A DNA stretch of 64,000 nucleotides from an uncultured Gammaproteobacteria bacterium (lineage in GTDB: Bacteria; Patescibacteriota; Microgenomatia; JAMCZE01), in assembly GCA_964576435.1 (NCBI GenBank), contig CAZNUP010000001.1, forward strand, positions 442,259 through 506,258, in the 5' to 3' direction. The position numbers and the translations under genes are program-made. Under the pieces are notes generated by a model, which worked only from the letters and a program-made list of their open reading frames with translations, did no database searches and was not told the origin of the DNA. Positions 32,567 through 57,398 of the stretch are shown one piece after another. The first letter of the stretch is position 1; each line of letters starts with the position of its first letter.

Positions 32567-32590
32567 ACAAGGCGGATTTTAATATATACT
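32562..32590 (+). promoter_or_regulatory. Candidate promoter (TTCATA-17-TATACT) in the 37-bp divergent intergenic region
   Basis: TATACT at 32585-32590, 13 nt upstream of the ATG at 32604. Overlaps the start of the divergent minus gene. Confidence 0.25.
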
Positions 32591-32603
32591 TCATGAATAC
32601 TCT

Positions 32604-37327: not shown

Positions 37328-38078
37328 TGAAGATAAATTTATCTACTTTGCCCTTTCTTCAGTAATTGATTTTGTAAGTGAAGCACTTGTTTATAATGAC
37401 AATTCCACAGATAAGACAGGTGAGATGATAAGTTTAATAAATTCTCCAAAACTTAAAGAAGTTCAAAAGATTGAAAGCAAAGACGTTGCAGATATTAGAA
37501 ATAAGCTTATTGAAGAAACAAAAACAGATTGGTTCATCCTCCTTGATGGTGATGAAATTTGGAATAAGAACACTTTTTTAGAGTTTTTAAACTTTCTGGA
37601 ATGTCAGCCTAAAAATATTCTCGCTGTGTCAATGCGTACAAAAAACTTCGTAGGAGATGTCTATCACATTATGCCTGAAGATGCCGGTATGTATGAGCTT
37701 CAAGGAAGAAAAGGACATTTAACAACGCGTGCTTTTAGAAAAAAAACAGGTTTTTATTGGAGAGGTAACTATCCCTTGGAATATTATGCCGATTCAAAAG
37801 GTGTTCAAGTAACAAAAAATCCCGATAACTGTGCGTTTTTTGAAGGTTCCTATTGGCACGCTTCTCATCTTGAAAGGTCGTCAAACAAAGACAAAGTACC
37901 AGGTTTTAGAAGTAAAAAAATAGAAAAGGGAATTTCAGTTGGCGAAAAAGATCTACCGGAAGTATTCTTCCACACTTTCCCAGAGTCTGTAGAGTCACCA
38001 TTAGTGCATCGTTCTTTAGGATTTGAAACTAAGGCTTTATTTTTAACACCTCTTAAAAAACTGAAGCGAAAATTATGA
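37293..38078 (+). CDS. GT2-like glycosyltransferase (WaaE/KdtX-like)
   Basis: Start moved to the ATG at 37293. YNDNSTDKT and ILLDGDEIW (DxD). Similar architecture to the 6554 gene. Confidence 0.5.
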   Translation: MLKVTTHTIAANEDKFIYFALSSVIDFVSEALVYNDNSTDKTGEMISLINSPKLKEVQKIESKDVADIRNKLIEETKTDWFILLDGDEIWNKNTFLEFLNFLECQPKNILAVSMRTKNFVGDVYHIMPEDAGMYELQGRKGHLTTRAFRKKTGFYWRGNYPLEYYADSKGVQVTKNPDNCAFFEGSYWHASHLERSSNKDKVPGFRSKKIEKGISVGEKDLPEVFFHTFPESVESPLVHRSLGFETKALFLTPLKKLKRKL

Positions 38079-38839
38079 CACGCGTCTGGCACGACAAGAG
38101 ATATTACGAAAGAATCGAAACTGTAGAGAAATTTGACCATCCAAGTTTTTTAAAGATCAATGCCTTAAGTAAGCAAGCTATAAAAATACTAGATGTTGGG
38201 TGTGGTGATGGAAGTAAGTTAAGTAAATTGGGATCAAAAGAATCAAAAAGATATGGTTGTGACATAAGTAAAGCGGGTACAGATAGGGGTAAAAAGTTGT
38301 ATAAGGAAATTATCTTCTCAGTGTTTTCAGGGACACGTTTACCTTTTAAATCAGATTTCTTTGATTTAACAACTACACATTTTGTTCTAGAGCACACCAA
38401 AAACCCTAAAGCTTTAATCACTGACATGATAAGAGTTACTAAAAAAGATGGACTAATCTGTTTTCTAGCTCCTAACTATGGTGCCCCAAATAGGGCCTCT
38501 CCCAATTTCATAGGATCGCGATCGAAAAAATTACTTCATGGGTTTAAGCATGATTTGTTCCCAAGACAGGGTCTTAACTGGAACAAAGTTACTCCTAAAT
38601 TAAATACAATGGAAAACTTTGAGTCCGATGACGACACCACAATCGAACCATATTTAAATTCACTTCGGCTATTTCTAAAAAGTCACAAATGCGATATTGT
38701 TGAAACCAGTTCAAACTGGAATCTAGAATTAAAAAATTTTTCAAAAGTCCAAGGTGTTTTCTCGTTTTTTGGAAATTTAGGTTTTTACCCATTTAAATAT
38801 TGGGGTCCACACCTTTTTATAGTTGCCCGAAAATTATGA
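38075..38839 (+). CDS. Class I SAM-dependent methyltransferase
   Basis: ILDVGCGDGSKL motif I. Confidence 0.6.
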   Translation: MTRVWHDKRYYERIETVEKFDHPSFLKINALSKQAIKILDVGCGDGSKLSKLGSKESKRYGCDISKAGTDRGKKLYKEIIFSVFSGTRLPFKSDFFDLTTTHFVLEHTKNPKALITDMIRVTKKDGLICFLAPNYGAPNRASPNFIGSRSKKLLHGFKHDLFPRQGLNWNKVTPKLNTMENFESDDDTTIEPYLNSLRLFLKSHKCDIVETSSNWNLELKNFSKVQGVFSFFGNLGFYPFKYWGPHLFIVARKL

Positions 38840-39954
38840 AAATAGCATTCTTAAATATTTATCACAATATAAATAGTAGAGGTGCCGAGAGTTTTGCTAA
38901 TGATTTAGCAACAAGACTTTCAAGGCGTCATGAAGTTTATATGTTTTCAGGGGCCCCCCCTAAAGATTCAAAAAAATATAAGTCAGTTGTAATTAAGGGA
39001 TGGGTGAGCCAGCCCACAAGTACTTTTAGTAAAAATCCCATAAGTTCCCTAAGGAAAAGACTATTTTTAGATAATGCTTCTTTATCAATTTTGCTTTTTT
39101 CTTTAAAAGTTGCACCAAAACTCTGGAAAAAAAAGTTTGACGTGATAAGACCTACAAATGGGTTTTGGCAGGTGTTGATTTGCAAAGTAATTACATTTTT
39201 TCGCGGTGGGAAGATAATTATTAGAGGCGGCTCCGGTCCGGGCTGGGACGAAAGATGGAATCTTTACTTGACCCCAGACGTCTTTATAGCAACTACGCCA
39301 GAAGTAAGGGATTGGGCTAAAAAAACTGCCCCTTGGGTTGATGTCCAAATGATTCCTTTGGCAATTGATATTGAAAGATTCAAAAAAGCCAAACCAGCAA
39401 AGATTGACCTGGAACACCCCATAATACTATGCAATGCCGCCGCCGACACCTACAAACGGGTTGATCTAGCTATTATGGCAGTAGCAAAATTAGAAAAAGG
39501 TTCTCTTCTTCATTTAGGAAAAGGTGAAGACCTGGAAAAAATTAAAACACTTGGGTTAGAACTTCTGGGGGAGAAACGCTTCAAAAGTATGGTCGTCCCT
39601 CATGATGAAGTTCCAAAGGTTTTCAAAGCCGCCTCCATTGTAACTCTTCCTTCAATGGAACAAGAAAGTTTTGGCATTGTCTTTCTTGAGGCCATGGCTA
39701 GTCATAAGCTAGTAGTGGCGACTGACGCTCCTAGGCCAAGGTGGATTCTAGGTCCTGGGGGATTATTTGTTGACCCAACAAATATCGACAAATATGCACA
39801 AAAATTAACCCAGGCATTAAAAGCGAAAACTAATTGGAAAAAAGTCGATGAACATTTAGTCAGCTTTAGCTGGGAGACAGTTGCTAACGAATATGAAGAC
39901 CTCCTGGAGCAGCACATGGTGCTCTCCCTAGGGCTTTTAGGTACACTTCTATGA
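38836..39954 (+). CDS. GT4 family glycosyltransferase
   Basis: Start set at MKIAFLNIY (ATGA overlap with the upstream stop). ESFGIVFLEAMASHKLVVATD motif. Confidence 0.7.
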   Translation: MKIAFLNIYHNINSRGAESFANDLATRLSRRHEVYMFSGAPPKDSKKYKSVVIKGWVSQPTSTFSKNPISSLRKRLFLDNASLSILLFSLKVAPKLWKKKFDVIRPTNGFWQVLICKVITFFRGGKIIIRGGSGPGWDERWNLYLTPDVFIATTPEVRDWAKKTAPWVDVQMIPLAIDIERFKKAKPAKIDLEHPIILCNAAADTYKRVDLAIMAVAKLEKGSLLHLGKGEDLEKIKTLGLELLGEKRFKSMVVPHDEVPKVFKAASIVTLPSMEQESFGIVFLEAMASHKLVVATDAPRPRWILGPGGLFVDPTNIDKYAQKLTQALKAKTNWKKVDEHLVSFSWETVANEYEDLLEQHMVLSLGLLGTLL

Positions 39955-41033
39955 AAACCCTAATTTTGATCCTGGTTCTAGCAACAGCCGCTTTATTAAT
40001 TGGAGTTAATAGGCCTTTTACTGGTCATCATGATGCGAACAATAAAATGTACAGAGTAGCTGCACTGAATTATCTAACTAAACCAATTGGGGTTCATAAG
40101 TTTGGCCAACTTATTGATGGAAACTTCTACACTCACCACCCAATACTCTTACCAATAACTCTTGCTGCGTCAATTCAACTATTTGGTGACCATTTTTGGT
40201 CAATTAGGCTCGTTCCGATAATTTTTTCTGTAGCAACGCTAGGAGTCTTCTATTTTATTCTACGGTCATTTTTTAAGCCTCAAGTTGCAATCATTGCCCT
40301 TTTATTTTGGATTATTACCCCTATGTTTCTCTATTTTGGGAAAATGGCAGATCATGAGGCTTTAACATTATTTTTTATAGTTCTAGCAGTCTACGGCTTT
40401 ATAAAAAAGAATAACCGTCTAGTGATTTTAGCCGTTGTTTTAGGGCAGTGGACTGGCTGGCCAGCTTACTATTTGGCCTTTATTCTGGCCGTTTTTATGC
40501 GCTCCTGGATTTTGCTTGTAATTTCACTAGTAAATTTTGGACTATTCGCTTCGCATATTTCAGCTCTAACGGGCTCTCCAATTGGTGGTGGATTAGTTGA
40601 TATTTTTCTATTTAGGACTGGAGCAAAAGCTTCGGTGGGAAGAATTGTCGAAAGCTATTCGATGATAGATTTTTTAAAACAAGAACTATCCTGGACCTAT
40701 CATTTTTTTACACCAATTCAGTTCTTTTTAGCAGCTGCGGCGGTTTTCCTTACCGAAAAGAAGTTGACCTTAAAAAACAAAGTCTGGTTTATTTTTCTTT
40801 TTGTTCCAATTGTGCACGTATTTCTTTTTAGAACCGGAGCACATAGACATGACTATTGGCTCTATTACTTTTTGCCATTTTTCTCCTTTGGTGTAGCAAT
40901 TACCATGAACTATCTTTTGGATAAAATGAAAAAACCAAAGATTGTATACGCCCTTTTTATAATTCTCCTAATTATTGCCTTTTTAAGGTCGATGCCCTTT
41001 TTCTGGGCTCTCCAAACAAGAATAGAACTGTAA
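39951..41033 (+). CDS. GT-C fold membrane glycosyltransferase (PMT_2/ArnT-like)
   Basis: YTHHPILLPITL...LFGDHFWSIRLVP (hPPL-like motif) and 9-10 TM segments. Confidence 0.45.
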   Translation: MKTLILILVLATAALLIGVNRPFTGHHDANNKMYRVAALNYLTKPIGVHKFGQLIDGNFYTHHPILLPITLAASIQLFGDHFWSIRLVPIIFSVATLGVFYFILRSFFKPQVAIIALLFWIITPMFLYFGKMADHEALTLFFIVLAVYGFIKKNNRLVILAVVLGQWTGWPAYYLAFILAVFMRSWILLVISLVNFGLFASHISALTGSPIGGGLVDIFLFRTGAKASVGRIVESYSMIDFLKQELSWTYHFFTPIQFFLAAAAVFLTEKKLTLKNKVWFIFLFVPIVHVFLFRTGAHRHDYWLYYFLPFFSFGVAITMNYLLDKMKKPKIVYALFIILLIIAFLRSMPFFWALQTRIEL

Positions 41034-41047
41034 GATATAATAAATAA

Positions 41048-41935
41048 ATGGTCTCAGTAATAATTCCAGTCTATAACGAAGAAGAATATCTCCCAGGCTG
41101 CTTAGAAAGCTTGTCAAAGCAAAAACAAAAAAGTTTGGAAGTAATTGTCGTGGACGATGGAAGTACCGATGGTTCAAAAAAGTTAGCAACCTATTCTCAA
41201 AACCATAAAGGCCCAGGAGCGGCAAGAAATTTAGGTGCAAAACATGCTAAGGGAGATATCTTAGTATTTGTCGATGCAGACATGGAGTTTGACCCAAATT
41301 TTATTAAAGATTTAATTGCTCCAATTCTAGAAAAAAAAGCAGTTGGCACTTTCTCTAAAAATGAGTACCTTTTAAATAAAGAAAATGTTTTAGCAAGGTG
41401 TTGGAATTTAAATCTAGGAAGAGACCCATTGAAAATGGAGCCAAAAGATTATGTCAGCACCGGTTGGAGATCAAAATTAAAAGGCTCCTATAAAAATTTA
41501 GAATCAGGAAAAAGCGAGGAAGTACGAGAAGAAGGTAAACAACACGTTTTTAGAGCAATATTAAAGAACAAGTTTGAAGAAGCTGGTGGTTTTGATTTAG
41601 GAGTTGGGTATACAGATGACTGGTCAATTTCAAGAAAGCTTGGAGAATACGCAACACTTGTGCCAGGCGCAAAGTATTATCACAGAAACCCAGAAACACT
41701 TGGAGAAGTTTGGCATCAAGCAAGATGGTTTGGAAAGAACGAATTCTTAACTGGCAATTTTATTAGAAAATTTTTCAATCTTATCCGCTACAACCCAATA
41801 ACTGGTTTTTTGATTGGAATTTACGGATCAATAAAATTTAAAGAACCCTCATTTTTCCTCTTTAAAATTGTCTATGATTCCGCTGTTTTTGTAAGCGTTT
41901 TTCTGTCATTTTTTGGAGAAAGTAAGAATAAATGA
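41048..41935 (+). CDS. GT2 family glycosyltransferase
   Basis: VSVIIPVYNEEEYL...VIVVDDGSTDGS and VDADMEF. Confidence 0.7.
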   Translation: MVSVIIPVYNEEEYLPGCLESLSKQKQKSLEVIVVDDGSTDGSKKLATYSQNHKGPGAARNLGAKHAKGDILVFVDADMEFDPNFIKDLIAPILEKKAVGTFSKNEYLLNKENVLARCWNLNLGRDPLKMEPKDYVSTGWRSKLKGSYKNLESGKSEEVREEGKQHVFRAILKNKFEEAGGFDLGVGYTDDWSISRKLGEYATLVPGAKYYHRNPETLGEVWHQARWFGKNEFLTGNFIRKFFNLIRYNPITGFLIGIYGSIKFKEPSFFLFKIVYDSAVFVSVFLSFFGESKNK

Positions 41936-43242
41936 AATACAAAGTTACTCTTATTTTGATCGTTTTACTTGGATTTTTCCTTCGTATCCAAGGCTTAAAT
42001 CAGTCTTTGTGGCTTGATGAATCAATTCAAACACTTGCTGTAAAGAATAATTCTCTTTTACATCTAATAACTACTTATTCACTAGGGGATTTCCACCCCC
42101 CTTTCTATCATGTAGTCTTGAAATTGTGGACCGACTTGTTTGGTTATTCCGAGTTTTCAGTTCGCATGCCTTCAGTAATTTTTAGCACCTTAACTGGTCT
42201 TTTTATTTTCTTAATTGGGAAAAAATTAAAAAACGAAAAAGTTGGTTTGATTGCTGCGTTTTTATGGATGATAAACCCGCTAGCCATATATTATGGCCAA
42301 GAAGCAAGGATGTATTCCCTTGCCGCATTTGGTGTAGCAGGAGCAGTTTGGTTTTTCCTTCAAAAGAATTGGTTGTGGTATTTTGTTTTTTTCCTGATTG
42401 CGCTAAGTTCAGACTATTTGCCGTTTCTCATGTTTCCCGTTTTCTTTCTTTTGTCAGAAGATAAGAAGAAGTTTGTCTTAATTAACTCTCTATTTATTAT
42501 TCCATTTTTAGCCTGGGCCCCATTTTTCTATCAGCAGTTCCAAATAGGTACAAGATTTGCTCAAGCTGCACCAGGTTGGAGTGAAGTTGTTGGGGCCGGG
42601 ACTATAAAATCACTTCCATTAACATTTGTAAAATTTACAGTCGGTAGGATAACTATTCAAGACAAAATCCTCTACGGAGTAGTTTTTGGCACATCAGTAC
42701 TCTTCTGCTTCTATTTAATTTTGAGAGCTGGGAAGCAGACCTTGCTTTGGAGCTGGCTACTAATTCCATTGATATTAGGTTTTATAATTTCATTTAAGAT
42801 TTCGATTTTCTCCTATTTCCGTTTTCTTTTTGTTCTTCCAGCATATGTATTGCTTCTAGCACTTGGAACCAAAGAAAAAGCCTGGGCAATTATTGTCATA
42901 ACTTTGATTTTCTTATCAGCAACGATCTATTTCAAAATTACTCCAGAAGCACAACGTGAGAATTGGAAAGCAGCTGTGGTCTATATTAATTCGGAACAAG
43001 GACAGGTAGTTTTACCAAGTGTTGCCCAAAATGCCCCACTAAAATACTATTCTGAGTCTCAAGTTGTTGAAGACAAAGATAATTTTGTTCCAAAAGAAAA
43101 AACTATCTATCTTATCCGTTATGTCCAAGAAATTTTTGACCCATCAGACTCCTTAAGGAAATCTTTAGAAAAAAACGGTTATCAAAAAACTGAAGAAAAG
43201 GGTTTAAATGGGGTATTAATTTGGAAATATCAGCAGAGTTAA
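41932..43242 (+). CDS. GT-C fold membrane glycosyltransferase, PMT_2/ArnT-like
   Basis: WLDESIQTL (DE motif) and GDFHPPFYHVVLKLW...FGYSEFSVRMPS (hPPL motif). Confidence 0.6.
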   Translation: MKYKVTLILIVLLGFFLRIQGLNQSLWLDESIQTLAVKNNSLLHLITTYSLGDFHPPFYHVVLKLWTDLFGYSEFSVRMPSVIFSTLTGLFIFLIGKKLKNEKVGLIAAFLWMINPLAIYYGQEARMYSLAAFGVAGAVWFFLQKNWLWYFVFFLIALSSDYLPFLMFPVFFLLSEDKKKFVLINSLFIIPFLAWAPFFYQQFQIGTRFAQAAPGWSEVVGAGTIKSLPLTFVKFTVGRITIQDKILYGVVFGTSVLFCFYLILRAGKQTLLWSWLLIPLILGFIISFKISIFSYFRFLFVLPAYVLLLALGTKEKAWAIIVITLIFLSATIYFKITPEAQRENWKAAVVYINSEQGQVVLPSVAQNAPLKYYSESQVVEDKDNFVPKEKTIYLIRYVQEIFDPSDSLRKSLEKNGYQKTEEKGLNGVLIWKYQQS

Positions 43243-43265
43243 ATTGTGCTTGCCTTCAGTAATTA

Positions 43266-46200
43266 TCACTCATTTAGATAATTTCGAGCTTTCTCAAAAA
43301 CAGCCCGGACTTCTTCAGGATTTTTCAGCTTTCCTTCTCTTGCCATTGCATTGACTGTGTCCAAAGCTCGCTGCACGCCACGACTTGTTCCAGGGGGTTG
43401 GTTCTTCATGGCTTTAAATTGAGATTCCCCGCCTTCATTGTTGTATACATATCCATAAGCTGTTGTCTGCATGCCACCATCTATTTTTTGTAACAAAGTC
43501 TGCATCTGATGGTAATGCGTTGTAGCGAAAATATCAGCCCCTGATTTTTGTAGTGCTTTCATTACAAGTGCCGCAAAAGGTGCTCCTTCACTTGATGAAA
43601 CAGCTGACCCCGGCTCGTCAAAAATCACTAGTGTTCTTTTACCTGCTTTGTGGGCTACTTGTACATTTTTTATGATTTGAGCTGTCACCATAGCTTCGTG
43701 CATAGAGGAGCTATTATTGTCCATCGACTCAGATGCTTTAAATGTTGATGCAATATATTCATAACTTGGCAAAGTCATGTGTTTCGCAAGTGCATAATCA
43801 GTACACAAGCCCAAAAATACATTAAACATAATCATTTTGGCTGAAAACGACTTTCCACTCTCATTATCTCCTGTTGCAATTGCTGGCACACCACGCACTA
43901 TTTCTATATCATTAGGTACAATTTCCTTAATTTTATCTTGTCTTAAGTATCCATACCCTCTGCCAATTACTTCATCCCCCAAGTAAACTCCCCCGGCAAT
44001 GCTTAAATCAGTGCCTTGTTTAACACGGCAACTTGGTAATTCATCTTTATTTAGCCATTCAGAAGCAAACGACAAGTTAACAAGATCTTCAATTTGTTTT
44101 GTCATCGTTCCTACAAAATTTCTATCAGGACAGTTTCTCAATTGAGATACATACTTCTTGACTATCTCGAAATCGCCGTCATAATCTATTTGCTCCAGTC
44201 CAATTCTTAAAGACTTTATTACTGTCGAAGCAATGTCTTGGCGATTCTCATATGAAAAGTCTGTTGGCGCCGAACTTTCGGTATATGCTTTTCGTAAGTG
44301 GTGAAGATATGCTTGTGTGATTGGGTGGGTAGCTAAAATAGTCTCACCGCTGATGAGGGGTTTAAAGACTTTTTGAAATCTTTCAAAATCTTCCATTCTT
44401 TTTTCCGGGGAAGCAGAGCGGGTCAGGTATTGATCCTCGAGGAGGTCTCGAATTATTTCTCCCCACATTATAAGTTCTTTCCTACCATAGGCCTCGTCTT
44501 TACCAGATAAGCCAATAAAGTCTCCACGAATTTGGGCAACATTTTCTCTGTCTCCCGAGTTTAAGGGAGCTCCTAGCCAGTCGAAAAATGGGTCCTTCAT
44601 ATTATCCTTGCGCCACGGAAACGCAGGTGTGGATAGTCCTGCAAATCCAGATTGAACTCTTCCGTATTTATCCATCAGATTTAGGTCTGTAAGTATTTCT
44701 TCGGTGGTCATGGTCCCGGCTTTACCTCCATTTATTATTGAATCTTCATCCAGAAAGCCTTGTTCCAAGGACTCTCCAGCAACCAGTCTCTTAAAAGCGT
44801 CAACAAATTCTGATGAATAGCCCTTATTTTCCAAAACTGCATGATAATTACTACTTGTTGGACTAGTCAATTCATAATTTCCAAATACAGCTGATCTAAT
44901 GTCGACCTCAGGTAGTGACCCGTTACGATTTAAGTCCAGAATTTGGCCGTAGTGTGTAGCGAGAACTGAGAAGACCTTCTTTTCGGCTAGCACATCAAGT
45001 ACTGCACGGATAATGGCTGTCGCATGGTTATCTTCTGTCCCACGAAATACTTCATCCATTAAGGCAAGGACAGGTGTTTCATTATTAAATGAGTAGATCT
45101 TATCAATGAGCGTGGCGACTCTAACAACATGGTGATGAAATCTACTGCCGTAACCAATATCATCATTCAAAGACAACATTGCATATTGAAAGTCAGGCAT
45201 CTCACCTTGTTGGTTTGCAAAAACAAATCCACCTATTTTGTGAATATAGCCGGACATTGCAAGCGATTTAAGTAATGTAGATTTTCCAGCTCCCGCAGAT
45301 CCAATTAAAACTAATGGGCGTCCAGGAACTATTTGGATATCATTTCCGACAATACTTTGTTTTTCTGTCTCCGATCTTAAGGAGTTAAATACCATGTGTT
45401 GCGGTAAATAATTTTTAAACGCGATCTTATAACTATCAGTCGGATATGACATCTCAATGCCTTTATCATTAGCTTTAGAAGCATAATATCTAAGACCTTG
45501 AACTAGGCCAAGGACATACAGAATTCTTTCCATATCGCCATCTAAGCCTGCTTGTTTGATAGTATCTGGAGTTAGTACGTCGTTGTAGGCTGCAGCTGTA
45601 ATCACAGCGCCCGCATTTGACCACAGCAATTTATCCAGGCCTATATTTTTGAGAAGAGCAATCGTGGGATTATTTGGAGACTTCGCCCGTTCAGAAAGGT
45701 CCTTAAACCATCTGGAGAACATATATGGGTCATGGGAATCGAAGACGTATTCCAGTTTTTTTGCACCAGGGTATTGTCGGTAATTTATTTCAGGACTTCC
45801 ACCGGCTTGAATAAGCTGCCTCATTAATTTTCTATCAGCAGAAATCTCGGTCCAAATTCCTAAAGTAAGGTTCGTATTTTCAAATGGAAAGTTCACCTGA
45901 TTCAGAAGAATCTCTGTCCATGGATTGGCGACATGATAGGCGGTAGGCAAATCGAGTTCCTGAAAAATTGTTGGAATTTTATAATTTCTAAATTGCAAAT
46001 CACCAAGTTCCGCTCTTTGACTTTGTGAAATTAATCCTCTTCGTTCTGACCAAGCAAGGATTGTATTAGTTAACACCTGTCTTCTATATCTGTTTAATGC
46101 CTTTTCATCTTTTATTTCTGGACTCCATACATATGGTTGGTTCATATCCAGCCCAATGCTCTTAAAGTTTGGTTTCCAAAAGTCGCGCACATATGCATTA

Positions 46201-47963
46201 ACTACGTCATCTCCTCTTGTCAATGATAAACATAATATCTGTGGAAGCCACATTTCTGCCATTTGGCAATATCTTTTCCAGAATTCATGATTTTCTTTTG
46301 GTTGATCATGTAACGTACTGCTACTTGCGCTAGACATTGCATCTATGAAAGAAAAAAGAGTTTTAATAGTAGGAAGCTGATCAACCTTATCCCCGAGAGC
46401 TGCCCGATACTTATTAATTATTCCCTCAAAAGCCAAAAAGTTGGGGAGGGTAGTCACACTGCTTATTTGGCTTTTGTAATTGTCTGTGCATTTTCGAAGA
46501 CCTTCCTTTGTCTGAGTATTACTAATATTGTCCTCTAACCATTTCGTAGTTTCATCGATTTTACCCAGTCGCCAAGCTATTAAAGCTACATTTGTGGCTA
46601 ATTCTTGATTAAAATTATAAAGTTTGTCATCCCAAAAAACTGGTTCCTGTTTAGCTAATTTTTCTAAAATAGTGCCCTGGTTAGTGTTTCCAGGACCCAG
46701 TCCTTGTGCCATAATTTTAGCTAGCTCGCTTCCAGTTACACTTCTTCCAAAAGGAACTTCTAAGACCCTAAGCAAATCGTCAAGGGTTTTAATGCCTTCT
46801 TTATTTTCATCTGCATAGGCACGAATGGCTCTTGCTTGTATTTGGTATAGGGAATTTATTGCACCAGCAATTTCAGTCATCTTGTCTTCGTAGCCTTTTC
46901 GATATTCTCCCGTTGGTACGATACCATTTAAATCGTTTAGAAGATTTAGGAAGACTCTTATATCAGTAATTTGATGGATAGATGGAACTTCTAAATCTCT
47001 TTTTGACAAGGAAACATGGTTCAATATATATTGAAAACTAAAAGTTTGAACAGTAATTTCGCCTCTATTTCCAATCACTGCGCCTATTGCGTCGTTGACC
47101 AAATTATAGGTTCTATCAAAAGCATCATATTTATCCTGACCGTAATGGTTCCTAAAATGATTAATGTCAGAAAATAGCGCTATGGGATCAGTGGGTTTAA
47201 TTCCAAGTTTTGTAAATTCCTCTTCAAATTCTTTATCACTTTCCAGAAGGTCATTTAGCAGGTGCTCGTTAAAAGAGGGACTTTCTGGATTTATGCCAGA
47301 AAATGGTCTTCCTATCATGTCATCATCTTTCATTCGTGCAACAAGTTCATTATTCCTAGCTGACCTCGCTCGTAGTTCCCTGTTAGTTATCTCTAAAGGT
47401 AAGAGTGTCATAGATATCTCTGTATATCTCTGATCTCTATCTCTTTGGCTTTCGGTTGGATTTGCTCCCCAGACGGAATAGTATGCTAAGGGTTGCCCAT
47501 CCAAATATAGTTGACGAATTCCTGCTTGCTCTAAACTATCTAAAGAGGGAGTTTTTAAATCAGCGTCAGTTAATAATTTTGAAGCGACCCCCAAGATGTC
47601 TCGGACTCTAACTAGATTCGCCACACTTTGTTCGGGCAGTTCGAGGATAGCTTCAGAGCTTAAGAATTCAGCTTGCAGCGTATCGACGTCACTTATATTT
47701 CGAGCGCCAGCATTCCAGCGAGTATTAGGTGGATCTGCTAAAAGAAATGGCCTTTCAAGTAGAGAACTCAGCTCTTCCTTAGGTGTATCCTTGTCGATCC
47801 AAGGGTATATATGGCGTATTGTTTGGGAAACACGGTTAGTTGAAATGATTGGCCTAGCAAGGGGACTTCTTAAAATTTCCACGAGATCATACCATTCTTC
47901 AGATTCTAAAAAATCTGCAAGTAAAATGCCCGGATACTCAGCGCCCTGCTCTAGACTACGCAT
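43266..47963 (-). CDS. Giant (1565 aa) protein with two tandem MutS-domain-V-type ABC ATPase modules and a roughly 870-aa N-terminal region of unknown function
   Basis: Module 1 (about nt 44936..45356) has GSAGAGKST...LALMDEVFRGTEDNHATAII...LATHY. Module 2 (about nt 43466..43961) has GDNESGKS...LVIFDEPGSAVSSSEG...FATTHY. The S-x-F-x-x-E, DE-x-GRGT and THY spacing is MutS-like rather than transporter-like. No mismatch-binding or Smr domain was recognised. Confidence 0.6.
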   Translation of the reverse strand: MRSLEQGAEYPGILLADFLESEEWYDLVEILRSPLARPIISTNRVSQTIRHIYPWIDKDTPKEELSSLLERPFLLADPPNTRWNAGARNISDVDTLQAEFLSSEAILELPEQSVANLVRVRDILGVASKLLTDADLKTPSLDSLEQAGIRQLYLDGQPLAYYSVWGANPTESQRDRDQRYTEISMTLLPLEITNRELRARSARNNELVARMKDDDMIGRPFSGINPESPSFNEHLLNDLLESDKEFEEEFTKLGIKPTDPIALFSDINHFRNHYGQDKYDAFDRTYNLVNDAIGAVIGNRGEITVQTFSFQYILNHVSLSKRDLEVPSIHQITDIRVFLNLLNDLNGIVPTGEYRKGYEDKMTEIAGAINSLYQIQARAIRAYADENKEGIKTLDDLLRVLEVPFGRSVTGSELAKIMAQGLGPGNTNQGTILEKLAKQEPVFWDDKLYNFNQELATNVALIAWRLGKIDETTKWLEDNISNTQTKEGLRKCTDNYKSQISSVTTLPNFLAFEGIINKYRAALGDKVDQLPTIKTLFSFIDAMSSASSSTLHDQPKENHEFWKRYCQMAEMWLPQILCLSLTRGDDVVNAYVRDFWKPNFKSIGLDMNQPYVWSPEIKDEKALNRYRRQVLTNTILAWSERRGLISQSQRAELGDLQFRNYKIPTIFQELDLPTAYHVANPWTEILLNQVNFPFENTNLTLGIWTEISADRKLMRQLIQAGGSPEINYRQYPGAKKLEYVFDSHDPYMFSRWFKDLSERAKSPNNPTIALLKNIGLDKLLWSNAGAVITAAAYNDVLTPDTIKQAGLDGDMERILYVLGLVQGLRYYASKANDKGIEMSYPTDSYKIAFKNYLPQHMVFNSLRSETEKQSIVGNDIQIVPGRPLVLIGSAGAGKSTLLKSLAMSGYIHKIGGFVFANQQGEMPDFQYAMLSLNDDIGYGSRFHHHVVRVATLIDKIYSFNNETPVLALMDEVFRGTEDNHATAIIRAVLDVLAEKKVFSVLATHYGQILDLNRNGSLPEVDIRSAVFGNYELTSPTSSNYHAVLENKGYSSEFVDAFKRLVAGESLEQGFLDEDSIINGGKAGTMTTEEILTDLNLMDKYGRVQSGFAGLSTPAFPWRKDNMKDPFFDWLGAPLNSGDRENVAQIRGDFIGLSGKDEAYGRKELIMWGEIIRDLLEDQYLTRSASPEKRMEDFERFQKVFKPLISGETILATHPITQAYLHHLRKAYTESSAPTDFSYENRQDIASTVIKSLRIGLEQIDYDGDFEIVKKYVSQLRNCPDRNFVGTMTKQIEDLVNLSFASEWLNKDELPSCRVKQGTDLSIAGGVYLGDEVIGRGYGYLRQDKIKEIVPNDIEIVRGVPAIATGDNESGKSFSAKMIMFNVFLGLCTDYALAKHMTLPSYEYIASTFKASESMDNNSSSMHEAMVTAQIIKNVQVAHKAGKRTLVIFDEPGSAVSSSEGAPFAALVMKALQKSGADIFATTHYHQMQTLLQKIDGGMQTTAYGYVYNNEGGESQFKAMKNQPPGTSRGVQRALDTVNAMAREGKLKNPEEVRAVFEKARNYLNE

Positions 47964-47971
47964 TTGAACCT

Positions 47972-48000
47972 ATTATAAACTATGGGTCAGTTAATTCCAA
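47972..48000 (-). promoter_or_regulatory. Candidate promoter for the giant minus-strand gene (TTGGAA-17-TATAAT on the minus strand); near-leaderless
   Basis: Reverse-complement TATAAT at 47972-47977 ends 8 nt before the ATG at 47963. The -35 TTGGAA is at 47995-48000 (reverse complement). Confidence 0.4.
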
Positions 48001-48012
48001 GAAAATTCCTTT

Positions 48013-48041
48013 TTGACTTACGGCAGAGCTTATAGTATAAT
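48013..48041 (+). promoter_or_regulatory. Consensus sigma70-type promoter TTGACT-17-TATAAT
   Basis: TTGACT at 48013-48018 and TATAAT at 48036-48041 with an exact 17-nt spacer. The ATG of the small ORF lies 6 nt downstream (leaderless). Confidence 0.6.
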
Positions 48042-48047
48042 AAGTAG

Positions 48048-48230
48048 ATGAGAAACACTGAATCGCCCCGCCCTATTCAAGGTCTATTTTTTTATTTGGG
48101 AATTTTCGCTGTCTTGGCTGGAATTGGTAGTTTTGCCAAGGGAGTTTTTGAAAAGGATGTGCAACTAACAGCTGCTGGATCAGCATCTGTTGTCGTCGGG
48201 TTGGGACTATTAAGAATGGCTCTTAAATAA
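48048..48230 (+). CDS. Small (60 aa) two-TM membrane peptide
   Basis: Hydrophobic segments LFFYLGIFAVLAGIGSF and SASVVVGLGLL. Driven by the consensus promoter. No homology recognised. Confidence 0.35.
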   Translation: MRNTESPRPIQGLFFYLGIFAVLAGIGSFAKGVFEKDVQLTAAGSASVVVGLGLLRMALK

Positions 48231-48305
48231 GTTTTTTTCAGTTCGATCTGGTGCCTTCCTTGGATGGAAGACGTTCGAACCTTTTACGCTCAAATTTGAC
48301 AATAT

Positions 48306-48596
48306 TTATTCGGAGACTACCCTTCTACCATCGGGAAGATCAAATTCTGTTTTGTCACCGTAAAATACTAATTCTGAAACATTCCCCAGCAGTCCACCTT
48401 CATAGAGGGTTTTTCCTAAGAATGAAAGTTTTATTCTTGGTCCTCTGGGAAGTGTTTTATATTCTGTGACCTCGAAGAAGTTCTCATGGCAATGTTCCAT
48501 ATGGATTTTTATGCCAGGAAATGTGAAATCTCTTCCCGGAATTGCTGAGTGGTGTTCGACCGATCCATCTCTAGGATTTTCGATGCGGAATTTCAT
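48306..48596 (-). CDS. Hypothetical protein (96 aa)
   Basis: Only sizeable ORF in this interval. It lies upstream of, and co-oriented with, the Nudix gene. No motif recognised. Confidence 0.3.
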   Translation of the reverse strand: MKFRIENPRDGSVEHHSAIPGRDFTFPGIKIHMEHCHENFFEVTEYKTLPRGPRIKLSFLGKTLYEGGLLGNVSELVFYGDKTEFDLPDGRRVVSE

Positions 48597-48661
48597 AGGT
48601 CAGGGGAGTTTATGTTTAGAAAACTTCGTTATCAAGTGAGGACGCCCTCTGTTAATAGAGC

Positions 48662-49375
48662 TTAAACTCTTTTTATGTTTTGCTTTTCTTCTCGGAAAAA
48701 GAAAGTCGTTGTTTGAAGCCCTTCAGATTTGAAAGATTTTAGGTAATCGACCACAGCTTTACCACCTTGCGTAGATCGTTTTTCATTGGTGATTCCAACG
48801 TCTAGGCTCACCCAGTAATTTTTACCAAACTTATTATCTGATTGAAGATTACCAAAAGGGTTATGTGCCAAGCAAAGAAAATATAAAATATCGCTGAATA
48901 AGTCATTCTCTAGTTGTCTGATTTTTCTTATGCATCCATTGAGTTTGAACTCTGCTGTAAGTCCGGTTTCTTCTTTAAGTTTTCTCCGGGCGGCGTCAAT
49001 AATATTTTCACCAGGAACGATTGTGCCTCCCAATATTCCCTTATCACCATAATACGGTTGTCGTTTTCTCGTCTGATTAAGAATTTGAATTTGATTACCT
49101 TGTTTCTTAAACACAAATAGTAAAACATTTAGTCTAAAGAGATCAGACGTTTTCCCTAGTGGATCAAGAGGGTGAATAGTTTCAACGTGGCTTTTGCCGG
49201 TTATGGTTAGAGAATATAATTCACTATTTTTTACAACTAGTCCCTTGTTGACCAGAAATTGCAAATGGTAATTGTAAAGGTCGTTAGAAGTTTTTGGTGG
49301 CCTAATGTCTCGATAGCGAAGTCCTTTGGAGGACAACAGTTTAGTTAGAATTTTAGTCTGAATGTCTCGTGCCAT
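48662..49375 (-). CDS. Winged-HTH plus Nudix hydrolase domain protein
   Basis: N-terminal LYNYHLQFLVNKGLVV (HTH-like). Nudix box GGTIVPGENIIDAARRKLKEETGL. Confidence 0.6.
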   Translation of the reverse strand: MARDIQTKILTKLLSSKGLRYRDIRPPKTSNDLYNYHLQFLVNKGLVVKNSELYSLTITGKSHVETIHPLDPLGKTSDLFRLNVLLFVFKKQGNQIQILNQTRKRQPYYGDKGILGGTIVPGENIIDAARRKLKEETGLTAEFKLNGCIRKIRQLENDLFSDILYFLCLAHNPFGNLQSDNKFGKNYWVSLDVGITNEKRSTQGGKAVVDYLKSFKSEGLQTTTFFFREEKQNIKRV

Positions 49376-49384
49376 TAGCCTGGA

Positions 49385-49413
49385 TTATATCTCAGGTTCG
49401 ATTCCTTTCATGA
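49385..49413 (-). promoter_or_regulatory. Candidate -10 (TATAAT on the minus strand) 9 nt upstream of the Nudix gene ATG; near-leaderless
   Basis: Reverse-complement TATAAT at 49385-49390. The -35 is weak. Confidence 0.3.
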
Positions 49414-49499
49414 GTAAGTTGGTGTCGAGGTGGATAAACCTTACCTTTTGAGGCTAAATATTTTGCAGCCCTGGATGGAAAACGTCCGAACTTTTACTC

Positions 49500-50489
49500 T
49501 TAAAAAGACCGCTGCTCAATAAATGGGTTTAAAACCGACTGCAGAAAAGTTAGCGTCTCCGGTTTAGAATTAATTCCCTTTTGTTTGAGTAAATGAGGGA
49601 GCGTAATATTTGCCATCGTTGTGTTCGTCCTCACTGTCAATTTTTTCTGAACACCTGTGTATAATGAGTCTTTCTGCATGTCCTCATTTGCTAATTGATT
49701 TAGCCTCACCTGCAGTTTCTCATATTGATTGTCATACCGTTCTCGTTCCGAATCAGATAATTGATCTCGAGAGGCCTGCCAAGTAAAATCCGGTCCGATG
49801 TAGTGTTCAAGGATTGCCTTTGCTGCTAGATATTGTTCGATTTTTTTCGCTTCAACTTCGCCAATCGAATAAGCGTTTGTGCCCAATTTAATGGCTACAC
49901 CAATGTCTTGTTCATACCACCTTAACAATTGCTGTTGCTCATTGGGTGAATGCAGGTTATTAATTAAGCAACCTTGTTCAAAATCAATGACAGATACGGT
50001 TATTGGCCTTAATTTATCTTGCACTCCATCAATTACAAAAGAACCAGCATTTACGTCTCCCAATAAAACTCCTTTTGAGTGAACTAAGGATAGTGAATCG
50101 TGGACTTGTGCAACTACCTCGTCAAATTTAGCTTTAGCTGTTTCTGTGGTCCAATTTATTCTTTCAATGGATTCCCCTGGAACCCTTGTCATTAATAAAT
50201 GTGCTTCGCTGTTATCTTTGTTATATTTTAGTCCAATTGGTTTAGGTGTTACACCTGAGCCATCCAACGCTTCCAAAAATCGAAATTCTTGCTCTAAACG
50301 TTGAATTACACTTCTGCTGCCGCCTGATTTTAATTTTGCCGATTTACTAAAAAGTTGAGGAAAAAAATCTCCCCCATCTGTAAAAAGCTGATTTTTCTTG
50401 CCTCTAATTTCCGCAGCCGGGCTCTTAAATTCTAAAGTATTGTAATGAGGATGGTCTTCATTGAGGATAATATCTCTAATTTCAGCCAT
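49500..50489 (-). CDS. Protein-kinase-like fold protein (Kdo/WaaP LPS-kinase-like or RIO-like)
   Basis: LHSKGVLLGDVNAGSFVIDG resembles the catalytic loop H-x-G-x-x-H/L-GD-x-N-x-x-N. Upstream conserved Lys region LLMTRVPGESI. Confidence 0.4.
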   Translation of the reverse strand: MAEIRDIILNEDHPHYNTLEFKSPAAEIRGKKNQLFTDGGDFFPQLFSKSAKLKSGGSRSVIQRLEQEFRFLEALDGSGVTPKPIGLKYNKDNSEAHLLMTRVPGESIERINWTTETAKAKFDEVVAQVHDSLSLVHSKGVLLGDVNAGSFVIDGVQDKLRPITVSVIDFEQGCLINNLHSPNEQQQLLRWYEQDIGVAIKLGTNAYSIGEVEAKKIEQYLAAKAILEHYIGPDFTWQASRDQLSDSERERYDNQYEKLQVRLNQLANEDMQKDSLYTGVQKKLTVRTNTTMANITLPHLLKQKGINSKPETLTFLQSVLNPFIEQRSF

Positions 50490-50506: not shown

Positions 50507-50534
50507 TTGGAACCTATGTTCATTTTGCTACAAT
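50507..50534 (+). promoter_or_regulatory. Candidate promoter TTGGAA-16-TACAAT; near-leaderless
   Basis: TACAAT at 50529-50534, 8 nt upstream of the ATG at 50543. Confidence 0.35.
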
Positions 50535-50542
50535 ATCTCTAT

Positions 50543-51595
50543 ATGAAAATATGTATTGATATTAGTCAGGTTGTTTTTAAAGGCTCGGGAGTAGAAAACT
50601 ACACCAGAAATTTAGTTAGGGAAGTTTTGCGCGAAAACAAGAAGACCAACTCTCATCAATACATTCTTTTTGGAACAAGTCTTCGCCAAAAAGTACTCCT
50701 AGACGATTTTGCTTTTGAACTACGTAAAGAGGGATTAATTTTTAAAACTAGTTTTTGGGCGCTACCCCCTTCTTTTACTTCAACTGTTTGGAATCAAGTT
50801 CATCACGTAAAGATTGAACGACTAACTGGGAAAATTGATGTGTTCCATTCGTCAGATTGGACCCAACCTCCAACTAGAGCCAAAAAGGTAACCACAATTC
50901 ATGATCTAGTGACCTATAAATTCCCCGAAGCTTCAAATAAAACTATTGTAGACAATATGCGCCATAAAAATGTTTGGGTTAAAAAAGAAGTGGATGCAAT
51001 AATTGCCGTCTCCAAAAATACAAAACAAGACATTATTGATATCCTGGAAATTCCACAAAATAAAATTCATGTCATCTATGAAGGCGTGGGGGAAGATTTT
51101 CTGAATTTTAAACCTGGAAAAGATAAGACTAGCAAAAAATATATCCTTGCTATGAGCGGTGTTGGAAATAGAAAAAACACTGACCGAGTAGAAGAAGCGT
51201 TTAATCTTTTAAAGCCAAAAGGAGTAGAACTTTCAATTGTTGGTAAAAATCTTGGTTTTGTAAAACAAAGCGATTTACCAAGCCTTTATGCCAATTCCCA
51301 GGTCTTTGTTTATCCAAGTCTTTATGAAGGATTTGGGCTTCCAGTTTTAGAAGCTATGTCAGTAGGTTGTCCAGTAATAACATCAAATAACAGCAGTCTC
51401 CCAGAAGTTGGCGGTGACGCTGCAATTTATGTTGATCCGAGATCTGTGGAGGACATAAAAGATAAAATTACTGAAGTTCTGTCTTTGAGTCCTAAATCAA
51501 GAAAGTCTTTGGTTGAAAAGGGATTCGCACAAAGTAAAAAATTCTCATGGAATAAAGCTGCTAAAGAAACTATAAAGCTTTATGAAAGTCTTTGA
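50543..51595 (+). CDS. GT4 family glycosyltransferase
   Basis: Start set at MKICIDIS. EGFGLPVLEAMSVGCPVITSNNSSLPEV motif. Confidence 0.75.
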   Translation: MKICIDISQVVFKGSGVENYTRNLVREVLRENKKTNSHQYILFGTSLRQKVLLDDFAFELRKEGLIFKTSFWALPPSFTSTVWNQVHHVKIERLTGKIDVFHSSDWTQPPTRAKKVTTIHDLVTYKFPEASNKTIVDNMRHKNVWVKKEVDAIIAVSKNTKQDIIDILEIPQNKIHVIYEGVGEDFLNFKPGKDKTSKKYILAMSGVGNRKNTDRVEEAFNLLKPKGVELSIVGKNLGFVKQSDLPSLYANSQVFVYPSLYEGFGLPVLEAMSVGCPVITSNNSSLPEVGGDAAIYVDPRSVEDIKDKITEVLSLSPKSRKSLVEKGFAQSKKFSWNKAAKETIKLYESL

Positions 51596-52652
51596 TTTGC
51601 TTGTTGCATTGCTTTTAACTACATTCCTTTTTCTTCACATAAACAATCAGAAGGTAAATATAACCCAACTTGAAAATCGCTATCAAAACTCCCAATACGT
51701 AAACCCAAGTGGCTATAAATATTTCATTGATGACCCAGAAGTCTACCAAGTTGCTGGCTGGCACTACATTCACGGAGAAAGTCCAGATAAGGTCAATTTT
51801 GAACACCAGCCATTAGCTAAATATCTAATTGGCTTGTCGCTAATGGTATTTCAGAATGCATCCTATTTACAGTTAATAATCGCTTTTTTGTGCCTCTTTT
51901 TAACAATTAAGCTCTCACGAATAGCTTTTGGACAATCTCTGTGGGCATTTATACCAGCTGTATTTCTAACAGCTGACCCATTGTTTCAAGAACAATCCCG
52001 TCTGGTTTATTTGGATATTTATCAACTCCTGGCAATACTTTTGCTCTTTTTCTTAGTCTTAAAGAAGCGTTTTGTGCTTTCAATGTTAGCTTTAGGATTA
52101 GTTCTGTTATCAAATTCCGTTTGGTCAGGAATGATTACTGGGTTTGTAGCACTTTTCTTCGTTTTTATAAAAGACCGAAAAAACCTTTGGAATTTTCTAA
52201 AGTTTGTCCCAATTACAATCTTGGTGTATTTAGCTGGATATCTAGTTTTCCTCTTAAAAAACTCCCCAATCGACTTTATTATGCTCCACATAAAACAAAT
52301 AAGGTTTTATTTGTCATATGTTCCCGAATATCCAAAAGGTGAAGTATTTAGGGTAATTTTCCAAGGGTCCTGGCGCAAATGGTTTGGAGATCATGGTTTC
52401 ATGCCAGCAGAGCCTTGGTCAATTTTGTGGCCAATTGGCTTAGTGCTTTCCTATGTTCCAATCATTTCTAAAAACAGATCTCCTCTGGTTGTGCTTTTCA
52501 CTTTATGGATTTCGGTCTGGCTCATTTTCCTAAGTACAAAACTAATTTTCCCCCGCTATTTGCTAGTAATCCTGCCGTTTATCTACATTTTGGCTATAAT
52601 GGGTATTCATGACTATTGGGATAAATGGCAACGAAGCAAACGTAAAAGTTAG
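51582..52652 (+). CDS. GT-C fold membrane glycosyltransferase, PMT_2-like
   Basis: FEHQPLAKYLIGLSLMVF (hPPL motif) and about 9 TM segments. Confidence 0.5.
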   Translation: MKVFDLLVALLLTTFLFLHINNQKVNITQLENRYQNSQYVNPSGYKYFIDDPEVYQVAGWHYIHGESPDKVNFEHQPLAKYLIGLSLMVFQNASYLQLIIAFLCLFLTIKLSRIAFGQSLWAFIPAVFLTADPLFQEQSRLVYLDIYQLLAILLLFFLVLKKRFVLSMLALGLVLLSNSVWSGMITGFVALFFVFIKDRKNLWNFLKFVPITILVYLAGYLVFLLKNSPIDFIMLHIKQIRFYLSYVPEYPKGEVFRVIFQGSWRKWFGDHGFMPAEPWSILWPIGLVLSYVPIISKNRSPLVVLFTLWISVWLIFLSTKLIFPRYLLVILPFIYILAIMGIHDYWDKWQRSKRKS

Positions 52653-53697
52653 GGTTGGAAGTGGTCAATATGCTTATGAACTTCTAACTCACCTAAAATC
52701 CTCAGATTCCTATAGGGTTTACCTTGAATCCAAGCCTCTAGACGACATGCCTAAAAACTTTTCCTATGAAGTTTTTGGTCCAAAAAAACTTTGGACTTTA
52801 ACTGGCCTTCAAAAAAGACTAATTGAAGAAAAGACTAAAGGAACTTTGCCAGACGTATTTTTCACTCCTGGTCACTATGCGCCTCTTTACATGCCAACTA
52901 AATCAGTAATCTCAATTATGGATTTAGCCTTTGAAAAGTTTAAGGAATACTATAAAAAACAGGATCTCTACCAACTCAAATATTGGACCATGACAAGTGC
53001 TATGGGGGCAAGTAAGATCTTGACCATTTCCGAGCATTCAAAGAAAGATATTTGCTCCCTTTATGCAGTTAGTCCAGATAAGGTTGTAGTTACCTATCCA
53101 GGATATGATAAAGATCGTTTCTCCCCAAAAGTTAAACCCGGAAAATTTAAAGGGAAATACTTCGTTTTCTTAGGGACTCTTCAACCTAAAAAAAATATCG
53201 AAAGACTTGTTGAGGCATTTAGTAGGATTGAAGACGATTCTATAAAACTCGTTATCGTCGGCATGATTAATGAAGGTCGTGGTGGTTGGATGAACCAGTC
53301 TATTTTTGACAAAGTAAAAGACCTAAGGCTAGAAGATAGGGTCATTTTTACTGGATATGTTCCAGATAATGAAGTTCCAGGTATTTTTAAAGGGGCATTG
53401 GCCTATGTTTTACCAAGTCTCTATGAGGGTTTTGGAATCCCTCCAATTGAAGCAATGGCTACAGGAGTGCCGGTGGTGGTTTCTAAGGTGAGTTCACTTC
53501 CTGAAATTTGCGGTGAAGCTGCAATCTACATAGAAAACCCCTATGATATAGATAGTATTAAAAGGGGTTTAGACCACGTTTTGAAAATGACAAAGACAGA
53601 AAGAGAAAAAAGAGTCGATTTGGGTGAAAAATGGGTAAAACGGTATAATTGGGAGGATACAGCCAAAAAGACTCTGGAGGTTTTAAAAAATGTTTAA
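52609..53697 (+). CDS. GT4 family glycosyltransferase
   Basis: [35 protein letters not shown] motif. Confidence 0.75.
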
Positions 53698-57396: not shown

Positions 57397-57398
57397 CC

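Follow-up and report, generated by a model that had tools for sequence, protein, structure and literature searches.

We analysed a stretch of 64,000 nucleotides of contig CAZNUP010000001.1 (assembly GCA_964576435.1, positions 442,259 to 506,258 of the forward strand), hereafter the window, whose G+C content is 36%. Its minus strand carries an open reading frame (ORF) that a preliminary description had placed at 43266-47963 and assigned a 1565-residue product; the ORF is exactly as described. The encoded protein contains two separate ATPase modules of the MutS domain V type (MutS_V), named here M1 and M2, with a long N-terminal region in front of M1, a linker between the modules and M2 at the C-terminal end (Table 1). 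Judging from its sequence, it is a MutS-family ATPase with two engines in a single chain and with extensive novel regions, and it belongs to a very small family.

Two MutS-type ATPase modules in a single chain

First, we cut out each module and scanned it separately against the Pfam MutS_V profile (PF00488), whose gathering cut-off is 30.2 bits. M1 (residues ~885-1013) scored 50.1 bits (E 4e-13, profile positions 2-128 of 188) and M2 (residues ~1362-1495) scored 47.8 bits (E 2e-12, profile positions 2-131 of 188). Both pass the cut-off on their own, in line with the earlier statement that two complete MutS-type modules occur in one chain. In a sequence search of the PDB, all 29 matches were MutS, MSH3 (MSH) or MutS2 chains; the best match of M1 was Thermus aquaticus MutS (1ewr, E 4.7e-11) and that of M2 was MutS2 (8qpp, E 3e-7). 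Traits specific to MutS are also present, namely the TH(Y/F) motif and a C-terminal S-x-G-x helix region that aligns with the S-Y-G-I of MutS1.

Outside domain V, nothing of the MutS architecture was recovered. The Pfam scan returned no MutS_I, II, III or IV (PF01624, PF05188, PF05192, PF05190), no Smr and no MSSS match, which agrees with the earlier remark that recognisable mismatch-binding, connector/clamp or Smr domains are missing; a core domain was not detected either, nor was any nuclease domain other than Smr. The whole protein scored 74.8 and 78.7 bits against the MutS1 models of NCBIfam (TIGR01070, cut-off 641.7, and NF003810, cut-off 480), and 85 bits against the mutS2 model TIGR01069 (cut-off 400). 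Since domains I-IV are absent and the NCBIfam MutS/MutS2 scores lie far under their cut-offs, the protein is predicted not to be a mismatch-repair MutS.

The catalytic motifs were compared in an alignment of six sequences, one for each of the six clusters of the family (see below). The Walker A lysine, the signature-like serine, the Walker B Asp-Glu pair and the histidine of TH(Y/F) are invariant in both modules and in all six clusters. Both modules thus keep every residue class required for ATP binding and hydrolysis. The motifs quoted in the preliminary description lie at the positions given there, but M2 reads S-S-S-M instead of S-x-F; likewise, the pattern D-E-x-x-R/S-G-T/S describes M1 correctly but not M2, in which neither an arginine nor Gly-Thr follows the Walker B Asp-Glu.

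Indeed, the two modules differ clearly from each other. The motif alignment gives DE-[LIV]-F-R-G-T-[DE]-D for M1, with the arginine that MutS1 (DEIGRGTS) and small MutS-like proteins also carry, and DE-x-G-[SA]-x-x-[SA]-S-x-E-G-[SA]-x-[LF]-A for M2, from which the arginine is absent; four MutS2 references display an Arg-less pattern resembling that of M2, DE-x-[GA]-x-x-T-x-P-x-E-G-x-A-L. M1 and M2 share 22% identity (BLASTP E 1e-6; hhalign E 3e-17). In an all-against-all comparison of modules taken from the hit set, they scored ~33 bits against each other, versus 70-82 bits for each of them against single-module outside proteins. The closest outsiders of M1 are small MutS proteins of 450-620 residues (MutS_III + MutS_V), and those of M2 are canonical MutS1 (domains I, III, IV, V) and Smr-bearing MutS2. 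As each module scores higher against outside MutS proteins than against the other, a recent tandem repeat of the modules was rejected. The protein has the appearance of two long-diverged paralogues fused together, or of the product of a very old duplication. The similarity between the two halves reaches only ~40 residues upstream of each module, and an internal duplication of the regions preceding the modules was likewise rejected (hhalign probability <0.1%).

The N-terminal region and the linker evolve much faster than the modules, with column identities of ~0.15-0.2 versus 0.35-0.47. Identity among family members falls to 18-22% in the N-terminus, where the invariant positions are P54, P72, P169, R627 (in the RYRAQV patch), N794 and P854. 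Residues 1-430 and the linker are acidic in all six members (isoelectric points of 4.5-5.4; 4.7-5.4 for the linker). As had been noted earlier, the large N-terminus contains no recognisable known domain, and we found no Pfam, PDB or profile homologue for it: residues 1-860 and 1040-1340 matched no Pfam family, the N-terminal profile gave just chance helical matches among PDB sequences (interferon-gamma and haemagglutinin), and a homology search with the N-terminal alignment found no homologue beyond the query itself. We also compared residues 1-430, residues 431-865 and the linker (residues 1051-1344) by hhalign with what precedes domain V in small MutS, MutS2 and MutS1. All probabilities were <2% (<1% for the linker), while small MutS and MutS2, run against the MutS1 core as positive controls, reached 75-98%; MutS domains III and IV are therefore not detectable, and neither is a derivation of the N-terminus or linker from MutS core domains. 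The protein has no hydrophobic segment of transmembrane strength, and since its best 19-residue hydropathy window is just 1.33, a membrane location seems unlikely.

Finally, residues 836-1565 were modelled with AlphaFold2 from the six-sequence alignment. The model has a mean predicted local distance difference test score (pLDDT) of 61 and a predicted template modelling score (pTM) of 0.60, with the modules at ~70-90 (M1 70-88, M2 60-93); 244 of its 730 residues, including most of the linker, fall below a pLDDT of 50. When this medium-confidence model was compared with the PDB by Foldseek, the best 50 matches all belonged to the MutS family (E 6e-12 to 8e-10), comprising MSH2, MSH3, MSH6, bacterial MutS and MutS2.

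Table 1. Features of the tandem MutS_V gene and of its surroundings in the window (residue numbers refer to the 1565-residue protein; "invariant" refers to the six-sequence alignment)
Feature	Position in the window	Strand	Remarks
Whole ORF	43266..47963	(-)	ATG start, 1565 codons + stop; tandem MutS_V giant protein; no interruption
N-terminal region, residues 1-835	45459..47963	(-)	All-helical, acidic, fast-evolving; no Pfam/PDB/profile homologue
RYRRQV (family consensus RYRAQV)	46074..46091	(-)	Best-conserved N-terminal patch; R627 invariant
Module 1 (M1), residues 836-1060	44784..45458	(-)	MutS domain V ATPase, Arg-containing type; PF00488, 1ewr, pLDDT 70-88
M1 Walker A GSAGAGKST, residues 888-896	45276..45302	(-)	G888, G893, K894, T896 invariant
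M1 signature-like GSRF, residues 939-942	45138..45149	(-)	G939, S940, F942 invariant; aligns with MutS S-T-F
M1 Walker B and following motif DEVFRGT, residues 970-976	45036..45056	(-)	D970, E971, F973, R974, G975 invariant
M1 ATHY, residues 1002-1005	44949..44960	(-)	T1003, H1004 invariant
Linker, residues 1061-1300 (240 residues)	44064..44783	(-)	Helical, acidic; no Pfam match; pLDDT mostly <50
Module 2 (M2), residues 1301-1565	43269..44063	(-)	MutS domain V ATPase, MutS2-like, protein C-terminus; PF00488, 8qpp, pLDDT 60-93
M2 Walker A GDNESGKS, residues 1365-1372	43848..43871	(-)	G1365, D1366, N1367, G1370, K1371 invariant
M2 signature-like SSSMHE, residues 1418-1423	43695..43712	(-)	S1418-S1420, M1421, E1423 invariant
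M2 Walker B and following motif DEPGSAVSSSEG, residues 1449-1460	43584..43619	(-)	D1449, E1450, G1452, S1457, E1459, G1460 invariant; no Arg
M2 TTHYHQ, residues 1481-1486	43506..43523	(-)	All six residues invariant
Sigma-70-like promoter TTGGAA-17-TATAAT	47972..48000	(-)	Consensus match only; -10 ends 8 nt before ATG
Nudix gene	48662-49375	(-)	Upstream of the ORF, same strand
Weak APH-like kinase-fold gene	49500-50489	(-)	Upstream of the ORF, same strand

A rare family and its genomic surroundings

An exhaustive HMMER search with residues 400-1565 against 1.84 billion cluster representatives (50% clusters) retrieved five full-length relatives of 1621-1783 residues (P0005-P0009; E 1e-59 to 2e-65, 31-34% identity), after which the scores fall to the generic MutS_V level (3e-14). 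All five have an N-terminus, M1, a linker of ~300 residues and a C-terminal M2, and overall identity among the six clusters is 20-24% in the six-sequence alignment. Word-indexed homology searches, whether started from the whole protein, the family alignment or the N-terminal alignment, returned the query only, and a single-protein scan of genome contigs found no relative. The family is very rare and occurs mainly in Candidatus Dojkabacteria: P0007 is annotated as such (HRI05920.1), and the locus L007 is a Dojkabacteria UBA2022 contig. The window itself probably stems from a related, Dojkabacteria-like bacterium with a small genome. The locus of P0006 (L008, JBILVZ010000001.1), labelled Methylococcaceae, has a G+C content of 43% and encodes RNase J, a split Lon protease and FtsK. 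As RNase J is unexpected in a gammaproteobacterium, this contig may be mis-binned.

No family member was found on IMG/VR viral contigs or JGI metagenome contigs, which gave just weak single-module MutS matches; GenBank phages yielded one weak single-module match and no family member, and plasmids yielded none. Two PHROGs families without assigned function, phrog_8439 (E 2e-18) and phrog_30120 (E 3e-15), with profiles of ~855 positions, match both modules, which indicates that phages also encode uncharacterised MutS_V proteins.

The gene had been placed immediately after a glycan island. It lies in fact inside this island, as glycosyltransferase genes flank it on both sides. Together with a 96-aa ORF and the Nudix and kinase-fold genes, the ORF makes up an islet of minus-strand genes (43266-50489) that interrupts a run of plus-strand genes for glycan synthesis, more than 40 in number (61-43242 and 50507-62154); the G+C content of the islet is slightly higher (0.39-0.40 versus 0.33-0.37). 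Within the window, no tRNA, integrase or flanking/direct repeats were found around it. The Nudix and kinase-fold genes were described as neighbours of the ORF. They do lie upstream on the same strand, but the 96-aa ORF and a divergent 60-aa ORF separate them from it, and the helix-turn-helix part assigned to the Nudix protein found no profile confirmation: the Nudix domain covers residues 80-192 only, and the first ~80 residues (MARDIQTKILTKLLSSKGLRYRDIRPP...LVNKGLVV...) resemble a DNA-binding domain of the winged-helix type. A 27-nt motif, CCTTGGATGGAAGACGTTCGAACCTTT, occurs twice, at 48258-48284 and 49469-49495 (the second copy 85% identical), each time just downstream of a minus-strand stop codon, that of the 96-aa ORF and that of the kinase-fold gene; a role as a terminator or regulatory element common to both genes is possible. 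Elsewhere in the island (54286-57396), a 1036-aa protein combines Wzy_C (O-antigen ligase/polymerase-like) and PMT_2 glycosyltransferase domains in one chain.

Upstream of the ORF, two promoter-like sites stand back to back (47972-48041, 48048-48230): a minus-strand TTGGAA-17-TATAAT and a plus-strand TTGACT-17-TATAAT. Their -10 boxes end 6-8 nt before the ATG of the large ORF and of the divergent 60-aa ORF, respectively; the latter encodes two hydrophobic segments (MRNTESPRPIQGLFFYLGIFAVLAGIGSF...) and is membrane-like. Regarding the near-leaderless promoter proposed for the large ORF, the consensus site is there, 8 nt before the ATG, but a promoter scan found no more sites than in shuffled sequence. 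With such a promoter, the mRNA of the large ORF would be leaderless or nearly so, and both ORFs may be transcribed as leaderless mRNAs.

To place the gene in its context, we compared six loci, the window and five further loci of the family (L007, L008, L015, L016, L017). No flanking ORF is common to any two of them at E <1e-4; the Nudix and kinase genes are thus not conserved partners, and a conserved gene neighbourhood was rejected. The neighbours are a CCA/poly(A) polymerase-like gene, a DHH phosphoesterase, PAP2 and GT2 genes at L007, housekeeping metabolism at L008, and ABC transporters and methyltransferases at L015. At L016, the block directly upstream of P0005 on the same strand (557-7576) contains a DnaD-like helicase loader (phrog_16826, E 4e-12), a large serine recombinase and seven small ORFs without assigned function, and looks like an integrated mobile element. 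At L017, eight ORFs without assigned function lie downstream of the homologue.

Proposed mechanism and alternative readings

MutS ATPase domains act as head-to-tail dimers, in which each ATP site draws its Walker A, Walker B and His from one domain and its signature-like Ser loop from the partner domain. In MutS1, the arginine of the DEIGRGT motif lies at the dimer interface. The window protein contains the two halves of such a dimer in one chain; both are catalytically intact, and they differ at this interface arginine. On these grounds we propose that the protein is probably a covalent, asymmetric MutS-type ATPase pseudo-heterodimer working as an ATP-driven clamp or switch, and not a mismatch-repair MutS. 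M1 and M2 would pack head-to-tail within the chain and form two non-equivalent composite ATP sites. ATP binding and hydrolysis would then move two long acidic helical regions, the ~835-aa N-terminus and the 240-aa linker, as arms, and these arms could grip or release a macromolecular target. Candidate targets are a nucleoprotein, the ribosome or a protein complex; within this picture, DNA/nucleoprotein, ribosome/RNA-protein and protein targets allow no confident ranking. Concerning the packing, a pTM of 0.60 is hard to reach with 244 of 730 residues disordered, from which we infer that M1 and M2 (~230 residues each) hold a defined mutual position in the model. The intramolecular head-to-tail dimer itself is supported only indirectly, by this pTM.

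Several points weigh against this proposal. The alignment behind the model consists of only six sequences, and a homodimer that pairs M1 with M1′ and M2 with M2′ is possible. The AlphaFold2 model of the N-terminus, all helix, is unusable (mean pLDDT 37.5, pTM 0.22). That the arms are acidic speaks weakly against a simple clamping of DNA. Moreover, the patchy distribution of the family and the L016 locus, with its serine recombinase and DnaD-like loader, would also suit a role in a mobile element or in defence.

The latter role is the first alternative to consider. The protein might be the NTPase of a defence or conflict system, or cargo of a mobile element, with the MutS pair acting as sensor or switch and the N-terminus recognising molecules of the invader. 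We regard this as unlikely. The PADLOC profile mad8, which describes a MutS-like protein of the MADS defence system, matches the protein at E 9e-15, but this match is limited to generic MutS_V positions. The much faster divergence of the N-terminus compared with the ATPase modules, and the sparseness of a family of six 50% clusters among 1.84 billion representatives, would both fit such a role, as would the genes that precede the L016 homologue, the eight ORFs that follow the L017 homologue and the position of the window gene in a minus-strand islet of higher G+C content inside a plus-strand glycan cluster. However, this islet has no flanking repeats, tRNA or integrase within the window, the neighbours at L008 and L007 are housekeeping genes, and no flanking gene is common to the six loci. 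The protein has no nuclease, methyltransferase or other effector domain, and none is conserved alongside; no true relative was found on IMG/VR viral contigs, GenBank phages or plasmids.

We consider it improbable that the protein corresponds to MutS2 (RqcU) in function and, driven by ATP, clamps ribosomes that have stalled or collided, or some other RNA-protein complex, and not DNA. This idea draws only on the affinities of M2, whose best solved relatives are the MutS2 chains of the collided-disome complex (8qpp, 7qv3) and whose Arg-less pattern, DE-x-G-x-x-x-x-x-E-G-x-A-L, recurs in MutS2 references that bear Smr. The lack of a mismatch-binding domain, as in MutS2, is consistent with it, and acidic arms would fit a protein or ribosome target somewhat better than naked DNA. 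Nonetheless, Smr, KOW and MSSS domains were not detected, the TIGR01069 score is far from its cut-off, the MutS2 N-terminal core has no sequence similarity to the protein, and translation-related genes are not conserved nearby.

Far less credible is that the ORF is an artefact, whether a mis-assembly, a read-through fusion of two genes or a decaying pseudogene. The identical protein (P0001) is on record from one NCBI contig (709,729 bp); it is a singleton at 90% identity, a point in favour of this reading. We compared the window with six contigs from per-run Logan assemblies (SRR14271331-36), all of them 100% identical to it. Three of these, L005 (window 31932-45799), L002 (44738-52081) and L001 (45789-55544), together tile the whole ORF, and the 1062-bp overlap of L005 and L002 includes all of M1. 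In run SRR14271336, L001 and L005 meet inside the ORF with an overlap of 11 nt (45789-45799), a break that could be held in favour of an artefact; it suggests a branch in the assembly graph of that run, possibly due to strain variation, and is bridged by L002, a contig from another run (SRR14271332). Furthermore, the five homologues from other genomes have the same architecture without interruption, and the catalytic residues are invariant in both modules. As independent contigs tile the ORF and five homologues share its layout, we take the ORF as real; the mis-join check suggested in the preliminary description thus turned up no artefact.

Finally, the chance that the modules are ordinary ABC-transporter or SMC/Rad50-type nucleotide-binding domains misread as MutS is negligible, since the weak matches that could suggest it (PF00005 ABC_tran at 22.8-24.7 bits, under its cut-off of 25 and in the P-loop region only, and several ABC-transporter NCBIfam models on the M1 P-loop) span only ~30-40 residues around Walker A below their cut-offs, no SMC/Rad50/RecF-type head domain appears among Pfam matches at E up to 1, and the profile check proposed earlier places both modules in MutS_V, as do their structural neighbours, all of the MutS family, and the MutS-specific motifs given above.

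Other tandem MutS_V proteins and known systems

The covalent tandem arrangement had been called unusual. This is correct with respect to canonical MutS, but the layout recurs elsewhere: among the 147 non-family representatives in the best 150 matches, at least 31 have two separate MutS_V modules, a proportion that is not to be read as a frequency because a two-module query favours such matches. At least four other tandem families can be distinguished among these proteins (P0010-P0144), all annotated as hypothetical. They include ~890-aa proteins (P0010-type) in which a MutS_III-like region followed by domain V occurs twice; proteins of 1070-1280 aa (P0011-type, with P0011 from Candidatus Margulisiibacteriota); proteins of 1160-1330 aa together with giants of 2996-3392 aa, of which P0039 (3392 aa) comes from Candidatus Omnitrophota; and proteins of 1635-1950 aa, with the P0105 cluster including a 1952-aa "J domain-containing" protein from Candidatus Gottesmanbacteria (UniRef100_A0A2H0NFS0). 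Like the window protein, they carry two modules per chain with the second at or near the C-terminus, but their N-terminal and linker sequences differ from those of the window protein, and similarity is confined to the modules, with E no better than 3e-14. The P0011 family is collinear with the window family across M1, linker and M2 (E 2e-44). Nonetheless, a common ancestry of the two fusions is uncertain, because in the motif alignment both modules of the P0011-type, as of the P0010-type, are of the F-[RK]-G-T kind, whereas M2 of the window protein is MutS2-like. Our literature searches on MutS-family and tandem-ATPase architecture yielded no paper with a tandem MutS_V layout, and those on KamC and on MADS-MutS yielded nothing relevant.

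Could these proteins have a wider significance? We tentatively suggest, as a possibility still in doubt, that candidate phyla harbour a wide, so far undescribed class of molecular machines built as single-chain MutS-type ATPases, comprising at least five families that look unrelated. The Dojkabacteria family would then be a distinct functional type, combining an Arg-bearing MutS1-like site and a MutS2-like site with ~1100 residues of novel acidic helical arms, and acting on a target other than DNA mismatches (ribosome, nucleoprotein or protein complex). If true, the MutS family would gain a new functional branch, and not a repair variant. MutS is a textbook ABC-type ATPase whose two inter-subunit sites behave asymmetrically, and a natural covalent heterodimer of a MutS1-type and a MutS2-type site would be a ready-made system for studying this asymmetry. 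As a 4.7-kb gene is a large investment for small-genome bacteria belonging to the candidate phyla radiation (CPR), its function likely matters to the cell.

Among profiled proteins, the top named matches in their respective libraries are KamC, the lysine 5,6-aminomutase reactivase ATPase (NF052383, 104.8 bits for the whole protein, cut-off 300), and mad8 (PDLC04140). Both matches cover the ATPase core only, and both proteins are MutS_V ATPases in use outside DNA repair. No aminomutase or MADS partner genes lie near the window gene; three neighbours scanned with PADLOC included no other MADS system gene, and no partner is conserved at the six loci.

MutS2/RqcU of Bacillus subtilis and Thermus thermophilus (7qv3, 8qpp, 7vuf) resembles the window protein in having a domain V ATPase without domain I, and it shares with M2, of which it includes the best solved relatives, the Arg-less Walker B-adjacent pattern, GK[TS] and TTHY. 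MutS2 is, however, a homodimer of ~780-aa chains with a MutS_III-like core and Smr (plus KOW/MSSS), domains that the window protein lacks, while the latter carries two differing modules in one chain and ~1100 residues without known homologue. MutS1, MSH2-MSH6 and MSH2-MSH3 have the domain V fold in common with the window protein, and their D-E-x-x-R-G-T motif is kept in M1. In the MSH heterodimers, two non-identical ATPase domains form asymmetric composite sites, as may be the case here. MutS1 and MSH proteins nonetheless work as two chains with domains I-IV and mismatch recognition, whereas the window protein is one chain without these domains.

UvrA, ABCE1 and ABC-F, finally, offer a parallel in logic, as two modules of the ABC superfamily are fused in them and form a head-to-tail dimer within one polypeptide, an arrangement that the window protein would share by inference. 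They belong to another ABC clade, have insertion, Zn or Fe-S domains of their own, and share no sequence similarity with the window protein beyond the P-loop. The window protein would show that the MutS engine, too, has been reused in single-chain form, just as UvrA, ABCE1 and ABC-F reuse other ABC engines.

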